A stretch of DNA of 64,000 bases from a virus. This document shows positions 1 to 64,000 of the stretch, piece after piece. A program made the translations under genes and the position numbers. Location of the stretch: the IMG/VR virus record IMGVR_UViG_3300031344_000005, positions 1 through 64,000 of that record; one strand, written 5' to 3'. Within the stretch, counting starts at the first letter, position 1. Every line of letters begins with the position of its first letter. The notes beneath the pieces are model-generated. The model had not been told where the DNA came from and did no database searches. It saw only the letters and a list, made by a program, of their open reading frames with translations.

Positions 1-359
1 ACTTGGACGGGGCGAACTTGGCCAGGGCGAACTTGGCCGGGGCGAACTTGGCCGGGGCGAACTTGGCCGGGGCGAACTTGGACGGGGCGAACTTGGCCAG
101 GGCGAACTTGGCCGGGGCGAACTTGGCCGGGGCGAACTTGGCCGGGGCGAACTTGGACGGGGCGAACTTGGCCAGGGCGTACTTGGCCGGGGCGAACTTG
201 GCCAGGGCGTACTTGGACGGGGCGAACTTGGACGGGGCGTACTTGGCCGGGGCGTACTTGGCCGGGGCGTACTTGGCCGGGGCGAACTTGGACGGGGCGA
301 ACTTGGCCGGGGCGAACTTGGACAGGGCGTACTTGGCCGGGGCGAACTTGGCCAGGGCG
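1..359 (+). repeat. 15-bp tandem repeat GCG(A/T)ACTTGG(C/A)C(G/A)GG
   Basis: Directly visible; encodes the pentapeptide units. Confidence 0.97.
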
Positions 360-24086: not shown

Positions 24087-25502
24087 ATGGACTTCTCAGT
24101 CATCCAACAGTCGCCCCAGGTCCGAGAACTGGTGCAGCAGAACGTGCTGCAGCGGGAGTTCAAGGACGCCCTGTACCCCCGCAATCTGTTCCGCGGCGAA
24201 GCCGAGCCGGTGGAATGGCCCGCCAACATCGGCGACAGCATGGTGTTCACCGGCCGCGGCCTGATGAAGCCGTCGACCAAGCCCTTGAAGCCCGGTGACG
24301 AGCCGCGGGCGAAGAGCGTCGAGTATGAACAGTGGTCCGCCCAGCTCCATCAGTGGGTCGGCCGCGCCCCGGACATCTCGACTGTGACCGACCTCGTGTC
24401 GATCGCGCGACTGTTCGTGAGCAACGTCCAGGCCCTCGGGTTGGATGCTGGCATGTCGCTCAACCGCATCGTACGCGATCGGTTGTACAACGCCGCGCTG
24501 AGCGGCCAGACGGTCGCGACAGTGACCGCGACTTCGGGCCACACCATCACGGTGGCGCGCTTGAACGGTTTCACGACCGCGCGGCGCCCCGACCTGTCGA
24601 CTGGATCGACGGTCAAGTTCGACACCGTGTCGAGCAACAACCCGCTGATCGCCTACACCAAGCACGCCTCCGGCGCCACGCTGACCCTCACCATCACGGG
24701 CTTCACCCCGACCTACACGGGCGACGAAACCGGGCCAGGCACCCTGACGGTTGCCGAAACCTTGAGCGGGAGCAACGTCACGGCGCGGGATCCGATCTGG
24801 ACCGCTGACGCCAGCTTCATCAACCGCGCGGGCGCTGGCCTGAGCGTCGATGCCGTCACGAGCACGGGCCACGGCTTCACGTTCGACCTGTACCGCAGTT
24901 CGGTGGGCCACATGGCGGACAACAACGTGCCGAAGATGTCTGACGGCTTCTACCACGCGCACTTCAACAACTACTCCAAGGGCCAACTGTTCAGCAGCGA
25001 CGAGAGCCAGCGGCTCTTGACCAGCTTGCCGGACTACTACTGGTACAAGGAGTTCACGATCGGCGAGGTGCTGGGTGGCCTGGTGTTCGAGGACACCGAG
25101 ACCCCGCAGGCGTCGAACGTCCAAGGTGGCACCTCCAACGTGTACGACGGCTCCGACACCGGCGAAGCGTTCGGCGGCGAGATGTACAACTACACCAGCG
25201 ACCTCATCCAACGCCCGATCTTCATCGGCGCCGAAGCGGTCTACGAATACTACCGGCCCCTCGGCGGTCTCGTGACTGAGGCCGGCGTCAACGGGCAGGT
25301 GGGTGAGTTCACCGGCCTGACCAACAACGGCATCGAGGTGAATGTGGATCGCGTGCAGGTCTACCTGCGAGCGCCCGTGAACGTGACGGGCGACATCGTG
25401 ACGTCGGTGTGGAAGAGCGTGATGGATTGGCCCTGCCGAACCGACGTGCTCACCGGCGACAGCGCCAGGTTTAAGCGGTGCGTCGTGGTGGAACATATCT
25501 AG
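24087..25502 (+). CDS. Major capsid protein
   Basis: 471 aa, strong codon bias and RBS, YHAHF/IGEVLGGLVFE pattern, position after scaffold. Confidence 0.85.
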   Translation: MDFSVIQQSPQVRELVQQNVLQREFKDALYPRNLFRGEAEPVEWPANIGDSMVFTGRGLMKPSTKPLKPGDEPRAKSVEYEQWSAQLHQWVGRAPDISTVTDLVSIARLFVSNVQALGLDAGMSLNRIVRDRLYNAALSGQTVATVTATSGHTITVARLNGFTTARRPDLSTGSTVKFDTVSSNNPLIAYTKHASGATLTLTITGFTPTYTGDETGPGTLTVAETLSGSNVTARDPIWTADASFINRAGAGLSVDAVTSTGHGFTFDLYRSSVGHMADNNVPKMSDGFYHAHFNNYSKGQLFSSDESQRLLTSLPDYYWYKEFTIGEVLGGLVFEDTETPQASNVQGGTSNVYDGSDTGEAFGGEMYNYTSDLIQRPIFIGAEAVYEYYRPLGGLVTEAGVNGQVGEFTGLTNNGIEVNVDRVQVYLRAPVNVTGDIVTSVWKSVMDWPCRTDVLTGDSARFKRCVVVEHI

Positions 25503-25510
25503 CGAAACGC

Positions 25511-26030
25511 GCGTCACAGCCTGAGAAGGAAATGTGCTTTTCCCGCGACTATCCCGACACGACGAGCGCACCGGCGCCACGGGATAGTCGCGCCTCAGTT
25601 TTGCCCTTCGGGGCAATTAAAGGGCCTGGAGCTTCGGCTCGTAAACACACGCGGTCGTGTCGCTGTGTTCTGGCCCGCCGGCATGGTGGCGGCGCTTCGG
25701 TGCTTGCCCATACGAACGTGCCGGTTCATGTCCGCGCTGGTCGCCCGATTGTGACGGGATTGCGCTTGCCCGCTTTGGTCAGTGGACATTCGCGCCCATC
25801 TATGACGGCGAACTCAACCGAGCTTTGTGCTCTGGATGAGTTGTTGCGCGGCTATCGGGAGACGCCAACCCTGGCCCTTGGCCATGGAACCGCGTCGCCC
25901 TCTGGCGGCCCCACTTCTAGAGAGTGGTCGGTGGCTTCGGCCATGACTCTGGACTCGCGCTCAAGCAGATCCCATCAGCGTGGGTTAAACGCTGTCACTG
26001 CTAGTGCCTGAGTCCGGTGCCCCGCCTCTT
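25511..26030 (+). ncRNA. Candidate large structured non-coding RNA (~520 nt)
   Basis: Four C(UUCG)G-capped hairpins, 13-bp perfect stem 25544-25556/25580-25592 and many further helices; no credible ORF. Confidence 0.7.
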
Positions 26031-62152: not shown

Positions 62153-62725
62153 TTGCTGATTCCTCAGTTTGTCCAGGCCCTGCACTACCAGGCGGCGAGC
62201 CGTAGCGCAATCAGTTGGGTTGTTCTCCACACCATGGAGGCCCCCTGCGTGACCGGCATGGCCCAGCGGTGCGCGCACAGCATGACGGGTGGCGGACGCA
62301 TCGATAGCGCCCACTATGCCTGCGACCCTGCCAACGTGATCCAGATGGTGCGCGAGCAGGACATTGCATGGCACTGCCGCAGCGATGCGACAGGCACGGT
62401 CAACCGTCTGAGTATCGGCGTCGAGCACGCGGGATACACGCTCGGCACTCCAACCGACTGGCCGCACGACCCACACGCGCAGGGCATGATGGACCTGAGC
62501 GCTCAGCTCGTGGCGGACATCTGCAGCCGCTACAACGTGCCGGTGGTGCGCTTGACGGTCGAGCAGATTCAGGCGGGCCAGCGGGGCATCATTGCCCATA
62601 TCGACGCGACCCACGCCTTCAACGTGCCGGGCGGGCACGTCGACGGCTCCACGTGGCCGTGGGATCAATACCTGCCCGTAGTGCAAGCGCTGGTCAAAAC
62701 GCCAGACGTCGAGATGATGTCATAG
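62153..62725 (+). CDS. N-acetylmuramoyl-L-alanine amidase (Amidase_2) endolysin
   Basis: VVLHT.E, SAHY, IAWHC, NRLSIGVE, IIAH...HVD motifs. Confidence 0.9.
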   Translation: MLIPQFVQALHYQAASRSAISWVVLHTMEAPCVTGMAQRCAHSMTGGGRIDSAHYACDPANVIQMVREQDIAWHCRSDATGTVNRLSIGVEHAGYTLGTPTDWPHDPHAQGMMDLSAQLVADICSRYNVPVVRLTVEQIQAGQRGIIAHIDATHAFNVPGGHVDGSTWPWDQYLPVVQALVKTPDVEMMS

Positions 62726-62758
62726 AGGCGAGCATCCAAACAGAGGAGGGCCTTCGTC

Positions 62759-62923
62759 ATGTGGTTGTTCTTTTCGATTCCTGTCATTTTCATCATCATG
62801 GGTCTTGTCATCTGGGTGGCAGCGGCCAAGCCCAAGGTCAGCGAGTTCGGCAAGATGGCGGTATTCGTCGGGCTGTTCTGGTTGTGCTCGTCGTTGACGA
62901 CACACTACTTCCCCCACCGCTGA
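62759..62923 (+). CDS. 54-aa two-TM protein, holin candidate
   Basis: AGGAGG RBS; two hydrophobic helices; directly after amidase. Confidence 0.55.
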   Translation: MWLFFSIPVIFIIMGLVIWVAAAKPKVSEFGKMAVFVGLFWLCSSLTTHYFPHR

Positions 62924-62987
62924 CCGCTTGACAGCCACCGCGCGACGGGCGACACTGCCGCAATGGACGCCGACAAGCTCCGCGAAC

Positions 62988-63353
62988 ATGCCTAAGTTCT
63001 TCATCCCCGGCCCGCTTCCCGGCCTCAACGAAATGATCGACCAGGCCAAGGGCTGCGGTGGCCGCGGTGCCCGGTACGCGCGAATCAAGGACCAGTGGAC
63101 GCAGACCTGCGCGCTCCATGCCCTGGCTGCCGAGCTCAAGCCCATGGCCCGTGTGCAGCTAGAATTCCACTGGATAGAGCGCACCCGCCAGCGCAACCCC
63201 GACAACATCGCAGCAGCGCACAAGTACATCCTGGACGGTCTGGTTACCGCCAAGGTGCTGGCGAACGACGGCTGGAAGCAGGTGGCAGGCTGGTCAGATT
63301 CGTTCGAGGTTGGTGACCGGCTCGGCGTGTGGGTCACGGTCGAGCCGGTCTGA
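62988..63353 (+). CDS. RusA-like Holliday junction resolvase
   Basis: LPGLNE, R.PDNI.AAHKYILDGLV..VL.ND motifs. Confidence 0.82.
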   Translation: MPKFFIPGPLPGLNEMIDQAKGCGGRGARYARIKDQWTQTCALHALAAELKPMARVQLEFHWIERTRQRNPDNIAAAHKYILDGLVTAKVLANDGWKQVAGWSDSFEVGDRLGVWVTVEPV

Positions 63354-63359
63354 CCTCGG

Positions 63360-63900
63360 CGCGCGCGGTGGCGATTGGGATAGGCCCACGCTCCAAGGGG
63401 CAGACAGCCGAACGGCCCGAGGTACAAGTTCTTGACTTGCGCCGCCGGGCCGTTCAAACTGTCGCTTGATGAGAACTACAAGGGTAAAGTCCCACGTAGT
63501 TATCCCGCTGTCAAGCGGGTTGAAAGGCGCCTCGAAGGGCGCTGTTGTTGCGCAAGCATCGTCCGGTCTCGTCAGGTCAACGGCGGCAGCCGAAATACTC
63601 CGCGCCCAATCGGGCGAGCACTCGAAACGCCGGCTCAGGATCCTCGGGCCACAGGGACGCTACCGCTGTCCTTGGCGCCGGCGCGAACCACCGCAACGGC
63701 TCACACGTGGATGCGTACCAAGCCAGCCCGCACGAAGAGTGACGGCTCGCCGGCGTACGGGACACGTGACAGCGCGTGTATGGGGCGAGCGCGCGACATA
63801 GAGCTGACCCGACGCAAAAAGACCCGCCGGCGTCAGTAGCAGCAGAGGACACGGAGCAAGAGGCAGAGCAGACCCAGACTCTCTTGGGTCAGGAAGAGCG
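63360..63900 (+). ncRNA. Candidate large structured non-coding RNA
   Basis: Enclosing stem GCGGTGG/CCACCGC (63365/63688), 10-bp stem 63410-63419/63446-63455, GCAA tetraloop, G-U-rich helices; no credible ORF. Confidence 0.5.
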
Positions 63901-63915
63901 GTCTGTCAATTGTGC

Positions 63916-63943
63916 TTGACGGCTAGCGTGAGTATGGTAACAT
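63916..63943 (+). promoter_or_regulatory. Sigma70 promoter for gene starting at 63950 (truncated by window)
   Basis: TTGACG-16 nt-TAACAT with TGn extension; ATG 6 nt later. Confidence 0.6.
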
Positions 63944-64000
63944 ATGGCCATGGGCCAGGTATCAAAGCGCTTCCGCCTGAGCTTCGTCGTGCTGGACGAG

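Follow-up and report, generated by a model that had tools for sequence, protein, structure and literature searches.

The DNA analysed here, referred to as the window, is 64,000 nucleotides (nt) long and represents bases 1 to 64,000 of an 82,815-base virus record in IMG/VR (IMGVR_UViG_3300031344_000005; record class linear, CheckV completeness 100, about 63% guanine plus cytosine, GC). Near-identical DNA was found in rhizosphere metagenomes, and parts of it also in a bog metagenome (run X11, the one exception among small-share bog, lake and freshwater rows, which were otherwise not used for habitat). Close to the right end of the window, a lysis module stands at the end of a long row of plus-strand genes. 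Its last gene encodes a RusA-like Holliday-junction resolvase and is followed by a gap of 590 bases, the left part of which folds into a group of hairpins. This gap and its hairpin module are the subject of our analysis. The locus comprises the following features:

62153–62725, plus strand: Amidase_2 endolysin (Pfam, E 1.5e-17)
62759–62923, plus strand: small membrane protein, 54 codons
62988–63353, plus strand: RusA-like Holliday-junction resolvase, last gene of the lysis module (PHROG phrog_1682, E 9e-18)
63354–63943, no strand assigned: non-coding gap of 590 bases between the RusA-like stop at 63353 and the next ATG at 63944
63944–64150, plus strand: 68-codon gene extending beyond the window end at 64000, with a strong coding signature (GC by codon position 0.77/0.45/0.90)

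The gap behind the RusA-like gene is not coding

The RusA-like gene shows codon-position GC values of 0.66/0.45/0.82 and had no match in a Pfam search. The 68-codon gene on the other side matched neither Pfam nor PHROG, and its stop overlaps the end of a minus-strand phrog_874 gene. Given this gene layout on both sides, the gap marks the end of a long rightward transcription unit, near converging leftward genes.

A first-pass annotation of this stretch had reported about 590 bp without a credible gene, and our analysis agrees. In all six candidate open reading frames (ORFs) of the gap, GC is flat over the codon positions, with third-position values of 0.56–0.74 compared to 0.82 and 0.90 in the flanking genes. 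Searches of the gap ORFs against Pfam and PHROG gave nothing above cut-off; the sole match, to DUF5553, reached 23 bits (cut-off 25) and fell on an arginine-rich stretch. Of the gap ORFs, the longest (135 aa) was searched against 5.8 billion proteins and had no homologue among them. Furthermore, an alignment of the gap with the diverged relative L093 (see below) contains 1- and 2-base gaps, and any common reading frame is therefore broken. On these grounds a protein-coding gene was rejected. Tests for a tRNA or tmRNA found none.

The gap also lacks relatives in reference collections. None of 4,227 Rfam models, including ROOL and GOLLD, matched anywhere in the window at gathering score. At E values up to 10, only two noise matches appeared in 63000–64000 (19.9 and 11.6 bits versus cut-offs of 84 and 80), both to the left of the gap. 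By blastn, the gap had no match among GenBank phages or PLSDB plasmids, and a tblastn search of phages with a 610-aa structural protein was likewise empty. Four patterns, exact or degenerate, gave no hit in IMG/VR scans, where the record itself and very near records are perhaps omitted.

Exceptional folding is confined to the left part

The first-pass annotation had described the entire region as large and structured. Compared to dinucleotide shuffles, the 546-nt stretch as a whole reached z-scores of only -2.22 on the plus strand and -2.75 on the minus strand. Among 196 genome windows of the same size it was ordinary after GC regression (z -0.97 and -1.10), with 30 and 23 of these windows folding better. 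This is because the signal sits in the left 150–175 nt or so only, as a scan with 150-nt windows revealed. In that scan the signal was limited to about 63375–63549. Windows starting at 63375 and 63400 had plus-strand z-scores of -4.0 and -4.3, beyond all 552 genome windows, while those starting between 63500 and 63875 ranged from -1.4 to +1.9. The segment 63400–63547 was extreme on both strands (z -5.76 on the plus strand, -6.57 on the minus strand), and none of 200 shuffles folded as well on either strand. Thus, the description as a structured region holds for 63400–63547; the stretch 63550–63900 folds ordinarily.

The minimum-free-energy (MFE) structure of 63400–63547 (-72.1 kcal/mol) consists of four hairpins, H1 to H4, which are followed by a small fifth one, H5:

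63400–63465, plus strand: H1, a long interrupted hairpin with 26 predicted pairs, a 10-bp core GAACGGCCCG/CGGGCCGTTC and a tip with TTGAC (MFE)
63474–63501, plus strand: H2, AACTAC..GGG..CCC..GTAGTT (MFE)
63504–63519, plus strand: H3, CCCGCT-GTCA-AGCGGG, with the invariant loop string CTGTCAAG (MFE)
63526–63543, plus strand: H4, GGCGCCT-CGAA-GGGCGCT (MFE)
63546–63561, plus strand: H5, a small GNRA-loop hairpin (GCAA in the window, GCGA in L093), three of its six pairs changed on both sides with pairing kept

Inverted repeats listed in the gap include CGATTGGG/CCCAATCG, GAACGGCCCG/CGGGCCGTTC and CGCCGGC-type palindromes. The complementary strings reported in the first pass are indeed in place (GCGGTGG at 63365–63371 and CCACCGC at 63688–63694 are exact, and GACAG lies at 63403–63407). 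Of the stems that had been proposed from them, GACAG...CTGTC around GAACGGCCCG/CGGGCCGTTC, AACTAC/GTAGTT and TGC-GCAA-GCA are real hairpins; the long-range helices are not supported. The MFE structure of the 546-nt stretch does not use GCGGTGG/CCACCGC. Perfect 7-nt inverted repeats are in excess (33 observed versus 15.8 +/- 5.3 in shuffles, none of 200 shuffles reaching 33), and the excess in the right part is largely due to a repeated palindrome. About 16 such pairs are expected by chance, which makes it impossible to distinguish any single 7-nt long-range pairing from a random one.

The module is single-copy: blastn found no second copy in the 82.8-kb record, and a covariance model run on the window and locus L001 gave 8.8 bits (E 1.1) as its best other match. 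The functional core of the gap is probably this module, which comprises four to five GC-rich hairpins (63400–63561).

Other parts of the record also fold well. The 150-nt windows at both record ends (window 1–300 and record 82651–82800) belong to the ten most stable plus-strand folds, with residuals of -18 to -20 kcal/mol, and may mark terminal or packaging-related structure. The windows starting at 25201 (546 nt) and 25801 (150 nt), that is the region 25201–25950, are likewise among the best-folding plus-strand windows of the genome.

The module is conserved in one diverged lineage

We then looked for relatives of the gap behind related genes. Among 132 candidates, 123 were RusA homologues at E <= 0.001, with P0002 (86% identity), P0004 (79%) and P0005–P0010 (64–77%) among the closest; used as a single protein against IMG/VR, RusA gave no confirmed relative. 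Scans with a RusA alignment provided 80 metagenome, 80 IMG/VR and 45 GTDB genome loci, and a further 91 loci (80 plus 11) were reached through an ASCH-like neighbour and the amidase. None of these 91 was similar to the gap. In total the gap was compared with 251 loci, the 45 GTDB loci not among them, and similarity was detected in only two, L093 and L094, both bog or peat contigs whose RusA protein is 81% identical to that of the window. The shared block is:

63401–63598, plus strand: block similar to L093 and L094 (nhmmer, E 2.3e-08 to L093 683–875)

Beyond 63598, local alignment revealed no similarity to L093 or L094, scores staying within the shuffle range. Within the block, 63511–63600 aligned to L093 with a score of 53 (shuffle maximum 37; none of 300 shuffles reached 53), and 63526–63597 resembles L093 806–873. 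L093 and L094 are identical through L093 position 807 and unrelated thereafter, so that their break adjoins H4. A covariance model built on the window and L093 was run over 200 RusA-linked loci (L093–L292, leaving out L002–L092 and L293–L297) and recovered only L093 and L094, the best other match being 12.7 bits with E 0.89.

The degree of conservation differs along the block. In the H1 region (63401–63470), 53 of 70 positions (76%) are identical to L093, versus 29 of 51 (57%) at the four-fold degenerate sites of the adjoining RusA genes, which argues that H1 is under constraint. The remainder of the block is 50–55% identical, with conserved islands.

Structure is conserved as well. Folded on its own, L093 gives these four hairpins again, in unchanged order, with z -3.32 on the plus strand (none of 200 shuffles as good) and -2.16 on the minus strand (5 of 200). 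The H1 core is kept with one C-G to U-A exchange. The position of H2 is taken by the hairpin GGATT-CAC-AATCC, and the 3' string TCCCACGT is invariant. Around the same loop, H3 of L093 builds an 11-bp stem whose sequence differs and which includes three G-U pairs that are workable on the plus strand only, and the H4 core GCGCC/GGCGC is identical. H2 and H3 are out of register in the alignment and were excluded from pair counts. The helices that stay in register in the MAFFT alignment are the H1 core, H4, H5 and a 3-bp hairpin, and pairing holds in 48 of their 50 cells. Covariation, which had been named as a check in the first pass, was seen in 5 of 25 in-register pairs, where both partners differ between the two sequences and pairing is retained (H1 contributes one such pair, H5 three and the 3-bp hairpin one), compared to 0–2 pairs when the partner was slid by 1–3 columns. 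The L093 fold is better on the plus than on the minus strand by 5.5 kcal/mol, and the H5 loops are of the GNRA type on the plus strand only in both sequences. These predictions mildly favour the plus strand.

The right part is variable and folds ordinarily

The stretch 63599–63915 is probably a weakly constrained spacer that is variably present. It contains a repeated palindrome:

63676–63832, no strand assigned: three copies of the 8-bp palindrome CGCCGGCG, at 63676, 63748 and 63825, spaced 72 and 77 bp

CGCCGGC occurs also at 63628. The CGCCGGC/GCCGGCG helices of the first-pass annotation are supplied by these repeated palindromes. Three of the nine genome copies of CGCCGGCG fall in this segment, for which the Poisson probability is 8.6e-07 for a given 160 nt and about 4e-04 after a genome scan, before correction for the 16 palindromes looked at. 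From its sequence, the cluster may be a candidate protein-binding array. One relative carries C63831T within the third copy.

Natural variants were sought by comparing Logan contigs of four sequencing runs with 62899–64299; uncovered parts were not counted as evidence. Two larger losses were observed:

63511–63897, no strand assigned: 387 bases absent in a 205-nt contig of run X4 (depth 3.33), which joins 63510 to 63898 with 30 plus 175 exact letters
63366–63443, no strand assigned: 78 bases absent in a 309-nt bog contig of run X11 (depth 4.17), which joins 63365 to 63444; the shorter side has 29 letters and is flagged as weak

Run X4 also holds the full form (contigs covering 63391–63767). 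The left break of its 387-base loss lies in the H3 loop, and H1 and H2 are still predicted in the short form. Another contig of the same run (339 nt) is exact over 63147–63420 and continues with 65 unlike letters, with the break inside H1. The X11 contig spans 63444–63717 with nine other letters and six gaps. Its missing 78 bases include GCGGTGG, GATTGGG and the 5' arm of H1, the partners of which remain. It also alters CCCAATC (63608 A>T, 63609 A>G, plus insertions). The switch that the first-pass annotation had suggested between GATTGGG and CCCAATC finds no backing here. Nor does its G-U-rich helix, which is not kept in L093 and in which a T63548A variant breaks one pair.

Each variant is represented by one contig, with depths of 3.3 to 5.1. 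The contig sides of 30 letters have the length of the overlap expected at a branch of an assembly graph with k = 31. Reads span the variant joints, which does not imply that the variants are viable. Three of the variant junctions come from near-identical relatives; the diverged lineage adds two, one of which adjoins a TnpB element. These five different breakpoints lie within about 230 bases (including the L093/L094 break and the end of similarity at 63598), and the joint behind the RusA-like gene is a rearrangement hot spot in natural populations.

The TnpB element belongs to L093, where a 377-aa TnpB gene (L093 1028–2161, plus strand) follows RusA after about 380 nt. At this place the window has nothing but spacer, and L094 has other sequence. 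The protein carries a Cas12f1-like TNB domain (E 2.9e-19), with OrfB_IS605 at 30.2 bits versus a cut-off of 30.5. Apparently, an IS605-type element landed in the same joint in L093.

Promoter-like sites and invariant strings

Three promoter-like sites were recorded in the gap:

63432–63460, plus strand: site in H1, TTGACT, 17 nt, CAAACT (in L093 TTGACT, 16 nt, TAGACT); below scan threshold
63486–63514, minus strand: site whose TTGACA is the H3 loop, TTGACA, 17 nt, GACTTT (in L093 TTGACA, 17 nt, GATTGT); absent from scan output
63916–63943, plus strand: sigma-70-like promoter, TTGACG, 16 nt, TAACAT, with TG before the second hexamer (consensus scan)

A sigma-70-type promoter is expected to have two hexamers 16–18 nt apart with at least 9 of 12 matches. 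The site at 63916–63943 reaches this and is the sole consensus-scan hit in 62700–64000, with 0.2 expected in shuffles. Its second hexamer ends one base before the first ATG of the 68-codon gene, and a second ATG follows six bases later. Since the site abuts the ATG, the message of this gene is, judged by its sequence, probably leaderless. An inverted repeat, TGTCAA-N6-TTGAC, lies in 63903–63943, one half of it being the first hexamer of this promoter.

The sites in H1 and H3 combine a good first with a weak second hexamer, and both are kept in L093 at the right spacing. CTTGAC occurs 57 times in the record (both strands), four times within 62927–63915. All four of these have xAxxxT at 16–17 nt, versus 13 of the 57 overall. 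One of them, CTTGACA, 17 nt, GACACT at 62927–62956, lies just upstream of the RusA-like gene, which may thus have a putative promoter of its own inside the lysis module.

UUGAC in H1 and GUCAA in H3 are invariant strings that complement each other, and the two apical loops of the L093 MFE structure consist of exactly these strings. For the window, the cost of exposing both is 8 kcal/mol, compared to -3.1 kcal/mol for the 5-bp duplex. The invariant strings can mean two opposed promoters, an RNA loop-loop contact or a protein site. A promoter in H1 would place UUGAC outside the transcript, and therefore the loop-loop idea and the promoter idea are mutually exclusive.

Discussion

The hairpin module left at this locus is restricted to a lineage and familiar in kind, although some of its details are unexplained, and it stands at a mosaic joint that varies. 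Most likely, the module is an ordinary transcript-end element. We tentatively favour a more specific reading, to which we give slightly less than an even chance: the module would be a single-copy hairpin element that closes the lysis/RusA operon as part of its 3' untranslated region, and it would stop or block transcription and protect the 3' end, at a recombination-prone junction. This reading agrees with the position behind the last plus-strand gene, with the constraint on H1 and the compensatory stem changes, and with a tolerance towards partial loss. Indeed, a tandem hairpin element would tolerate such loss, and the variants lose either the 5' half of H1 or everything from the H3 loop on.

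We infer that the plus strand is transcribed through the module and that the module acts as terminator or stabiliser. RNA polymerase leaving the RusA-like gene would transcribe H1 to H5, and the hairpins would slow or stop it without a U-tract, possibly assisted by Rho. Stable hairpins remaining at the 3' end would shield the upstream message from exonucleases, and H1, with its 26 predicted interrupted pairs, would be a possible RNase III site. The module would be followed by a spacer of about 350 bases (63599–63915) and the promoter of the 68-codon gene.

As in intrinsic terminators, GC-rich hairpins (H1–H4) lie directly behind the last plus-strand gene. What the module has in common with such terminators, including bidirectional ones (PMC1852404), is that its stable hairpins close a transcription unit and show compensatory exchanges and G-U pairs. 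One study describes terminator hairpins as kept by selection and evolving through compensatory exchanges with G-U intermediates (PMC5381666). The module differs in that no T/U-tract follows any hairpin on either strand. H1 is also far longer than the usual terminator stem. In this respect the module resembles REP325-type hairpins in 3' untranslated regions of Escherichia coli: these, too, are GC-rich imperfect palindromes without U-tract, located behind a gene or between convergent genes, and the presence of REPs varies among strains. U-tract-less REP325 hairpins, also between convergent genes, are reported to be a partly Rho-dependent terminator and mRNA stabiliser (bioRxiv 10.64898/2026.03.23.713779). 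REPs, however, form one family with hundreds of copies, whereas the module consists of four or five different hairpins, is single-copy, resides in a phage and is known here from sequence alone. Phage messages also contain RNase III processing hairpins, such as the T7 intergenic sites and lambda sib. Like these, the module places an interrupted hairpin with at least 20 pairs directly after a gene, and by analogy it could determine where the upstream message ends and how stable it is.

Several observations weigh against the terminator and stabiliser role. No hairpin is followed by a T-run: terminator-like sites numbered zero in 62700–64000 on either strand, and our own hairpin-plus-T-run screen found none here. 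Elsewhere in the record that screen did find sites, for example on both strands near 67.9 kb, although it is crude and most of its 71 hits are unconvincing. Because of these sites, canonical terminators are apparently in use by the phage or its host. At record 67881–67889, a hairpin with T-runs on both strands resembles a canonical bidirectional terminator. None of the 18 listed sequencing runs is RNA. In addition, 6 of the 20 other RusA-linked loci surveyed have an ORF on the same strand that overlaps the stop of RusA, and RusA as the last gene is therefore a property of the lineage and not of the gene family (21 loci hand-picked among the best matches, with 40 mononucleotide shuffles each; L104 and L174 are the same phage). 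A terminator role leaves the invariant TTGAC at the H1 tip and CTGTCAAG in the H3 loop unexplained. Finally, the covariation comes from two sequences, the window and one diverged lineage, from which the structure itself was derived. The structure conservation index on the MAFFT alignment is only 0.41–0.49, and consensus energies are only moderately better than those of column shuffles, of which 2, 3, 4 and 9 of 200 were as good, depending on alignment and strand.

The main competitor is an independent small RNA of about 130–200 nt that comprises H2–H5 and beyond, starts near 63465 from the promoter-like site in H1 and makes loop-loop or GNRA contacts. We consider such a new phage small RNA family unlikely. 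It would account for the promoter-like hexamers at equal position in the window (TTGACT-17-CAAACT) and in L093 (TTGACT-16-TAGACT), for plus-strand hairpins conserved with compensatory exchanges and GNRA loops, for constraint above neutral in 63401–63470, and for the invariant, complementary UUGAC and GUCAA that form exact apical loops in the L093 MFE structure. However, the second hexamer of the window is poor and its site lies under the scan threshold, the X11 contig without 63366–63443 loses the first hexamer, and a promoter in H1 excludes the loop-loop contact, which the 8 kcal/mol exposure cost disfavours in the window. Nor was there an Rfam match, a further member in 200 loci or an RNA run among the 18. 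A wider version, also doubtful, would see in 63401–63598 a new family of small structured phage RNA, with four to five hairpins, GNRA loops and kissing UUGAC/GUCAA loops, in place of a passive transcript end. This RNA would come from processing of the late message, as its 3' end, or else from a separate promoter; it would work in trans or, where the late operon ends, as one of a sense/antisense pair.

Control at the DNA level seems to us somewhat less likely still. Here, the rightward promoter in H1 and the leftward one in H3 would face and interfere with each other, the leftward one giving rise to RNA antisense to the late-operon end, and the CTTGAC half-sites and CGCCGGCG would be protein sites. 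P2/186-type phages are known for face-to-face promoter switches, and the two opposed promoter-like sites about 80 bp apart are reminiscent of them. The gap, however, is not flanked by repressor genes, and its second hexamers are weak. This idea draws on the second hexamer that accompanies all four local CTTGAC sites, on the correctly spaced hexamers that L093 keeps at both sites of the left block, on the inverted repeat that takes in the first hexamer of the promoter at 63916, and on the clustering of three of the nine CGCCGGCG copies at 63676–63832. But these motif statistics are post hoc, and the 63916 site alone passes the scan. No adjoining regulator gene was found, the 68-codon gene being without family match. 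Moreover, promoters leave the compensatory stem changes around the motifs unexplained, and the palindrome region is missing in a natural variant and altered in its third copy (C63831T) in one relative.

It is improbable that 63511–63897 represents a non-autonomous mobile insertion, for instance an IS200/IS605-type remnant like the L093 TnpB element, with the short form as the empty site. The clean presence and absence with exact ends (63510 to 63898) next to the full form in the same run X4, the TnpB gene 380 nt behind RusA in L093, the resemblance of 63526–63597 to L093 806–873 and the divergence of L093 and L094 at L093 807/808, next to H4, would all suit an insertion. However, no TnpB or TnpA was found in the record (tblastn of L093 TnpB, best E 1.6). 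The right 300 nt are unlike L093 and L094, and the left 70 nt that do resemble L093 lie there about 150 nt upstream of the TnpB gene instead of at its 3' end. The hairpins at the two ends of the 387 bases differ, and terminal repeats are missing. No second copy occurs in the record or in the 91 or 251 loci, and no exact 25-mer copy in IMG/VR. The sequence past the L094 breakpoint is unlike the right flank in the window (251 of 300 shuffles score as high), and the breakpoints of the two lineages are about 17 nt apart.

In the first-pass annotation, about 63360–63900 had been read as a single large non-coding RNA or ribozyme of several domains, some 540–590 nt in size, that long-range helices such as GCGGTGG/CCACCGC would close. 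The gene-free gap, whole-region z-scores of -2.2 and -2.75 and the 33 versus 15.8 inverted repeats had spoken for it. We now regard it as very improbable, since the region is no outlier among genome windows, the right 350 nt are average in folding, similarity to L093 stops at 63598, variants delete one strand of the closing helices, that helix is unused in the MFE structure and Rfam offers only the two noise matches far under cut-off. The right 350 bases or so and the module are not one large folded RNA. ROOL and GOLLD are described as large ornate RNAs, often in phages or prophages (bioRxiv 10.1101/2024.12.08.627333 / PMC12286853). The gap shares with them a phage setting, a length of several hundred bases, the absence of genes and a wealth of stems; it differs in having no Rfam match, in that only 150–200 nt are structured and conserved, ending at about 63560–63598, and in that the long-range helices are not kept. 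Two large RNAs in one phage, which the first pass had also envisaged, are not supported on present evidence, at least not at the RusA gap.

Equally little credence can be given to an origin of replication, a packaging site or an attachment site: the palindromes and hairpins in a gene-free stretch would suit one, but there is no positive evidence and no iteron-like or direct-repeat array (direct repeats are two-copy, 8–21 nt and mostly imperfect), no AT-rich stretch (GC 0.56–0.69) and no tyrosine or serine recombinase gene found in the record, and most of the stretch is missing in a natural variant. An attP site was rejected after an integrase/resolvase family search of the record without match.

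Thus, the interesting part of the locus is narrowed to about 150–200 bases, and the false lead of a large RNA is removed. The junction behind the RusA-like gene is a small, concrete example of how boundaries in phage mosaics fall at hairpin-rich, gene-free joints. Should the module be a new small RNA, it would found a new family of phage small RNAs. If it is, as we tentatively favour, a terminator and stabiliser that works without a U-tract, it would make a useful part in hosts of high GC.

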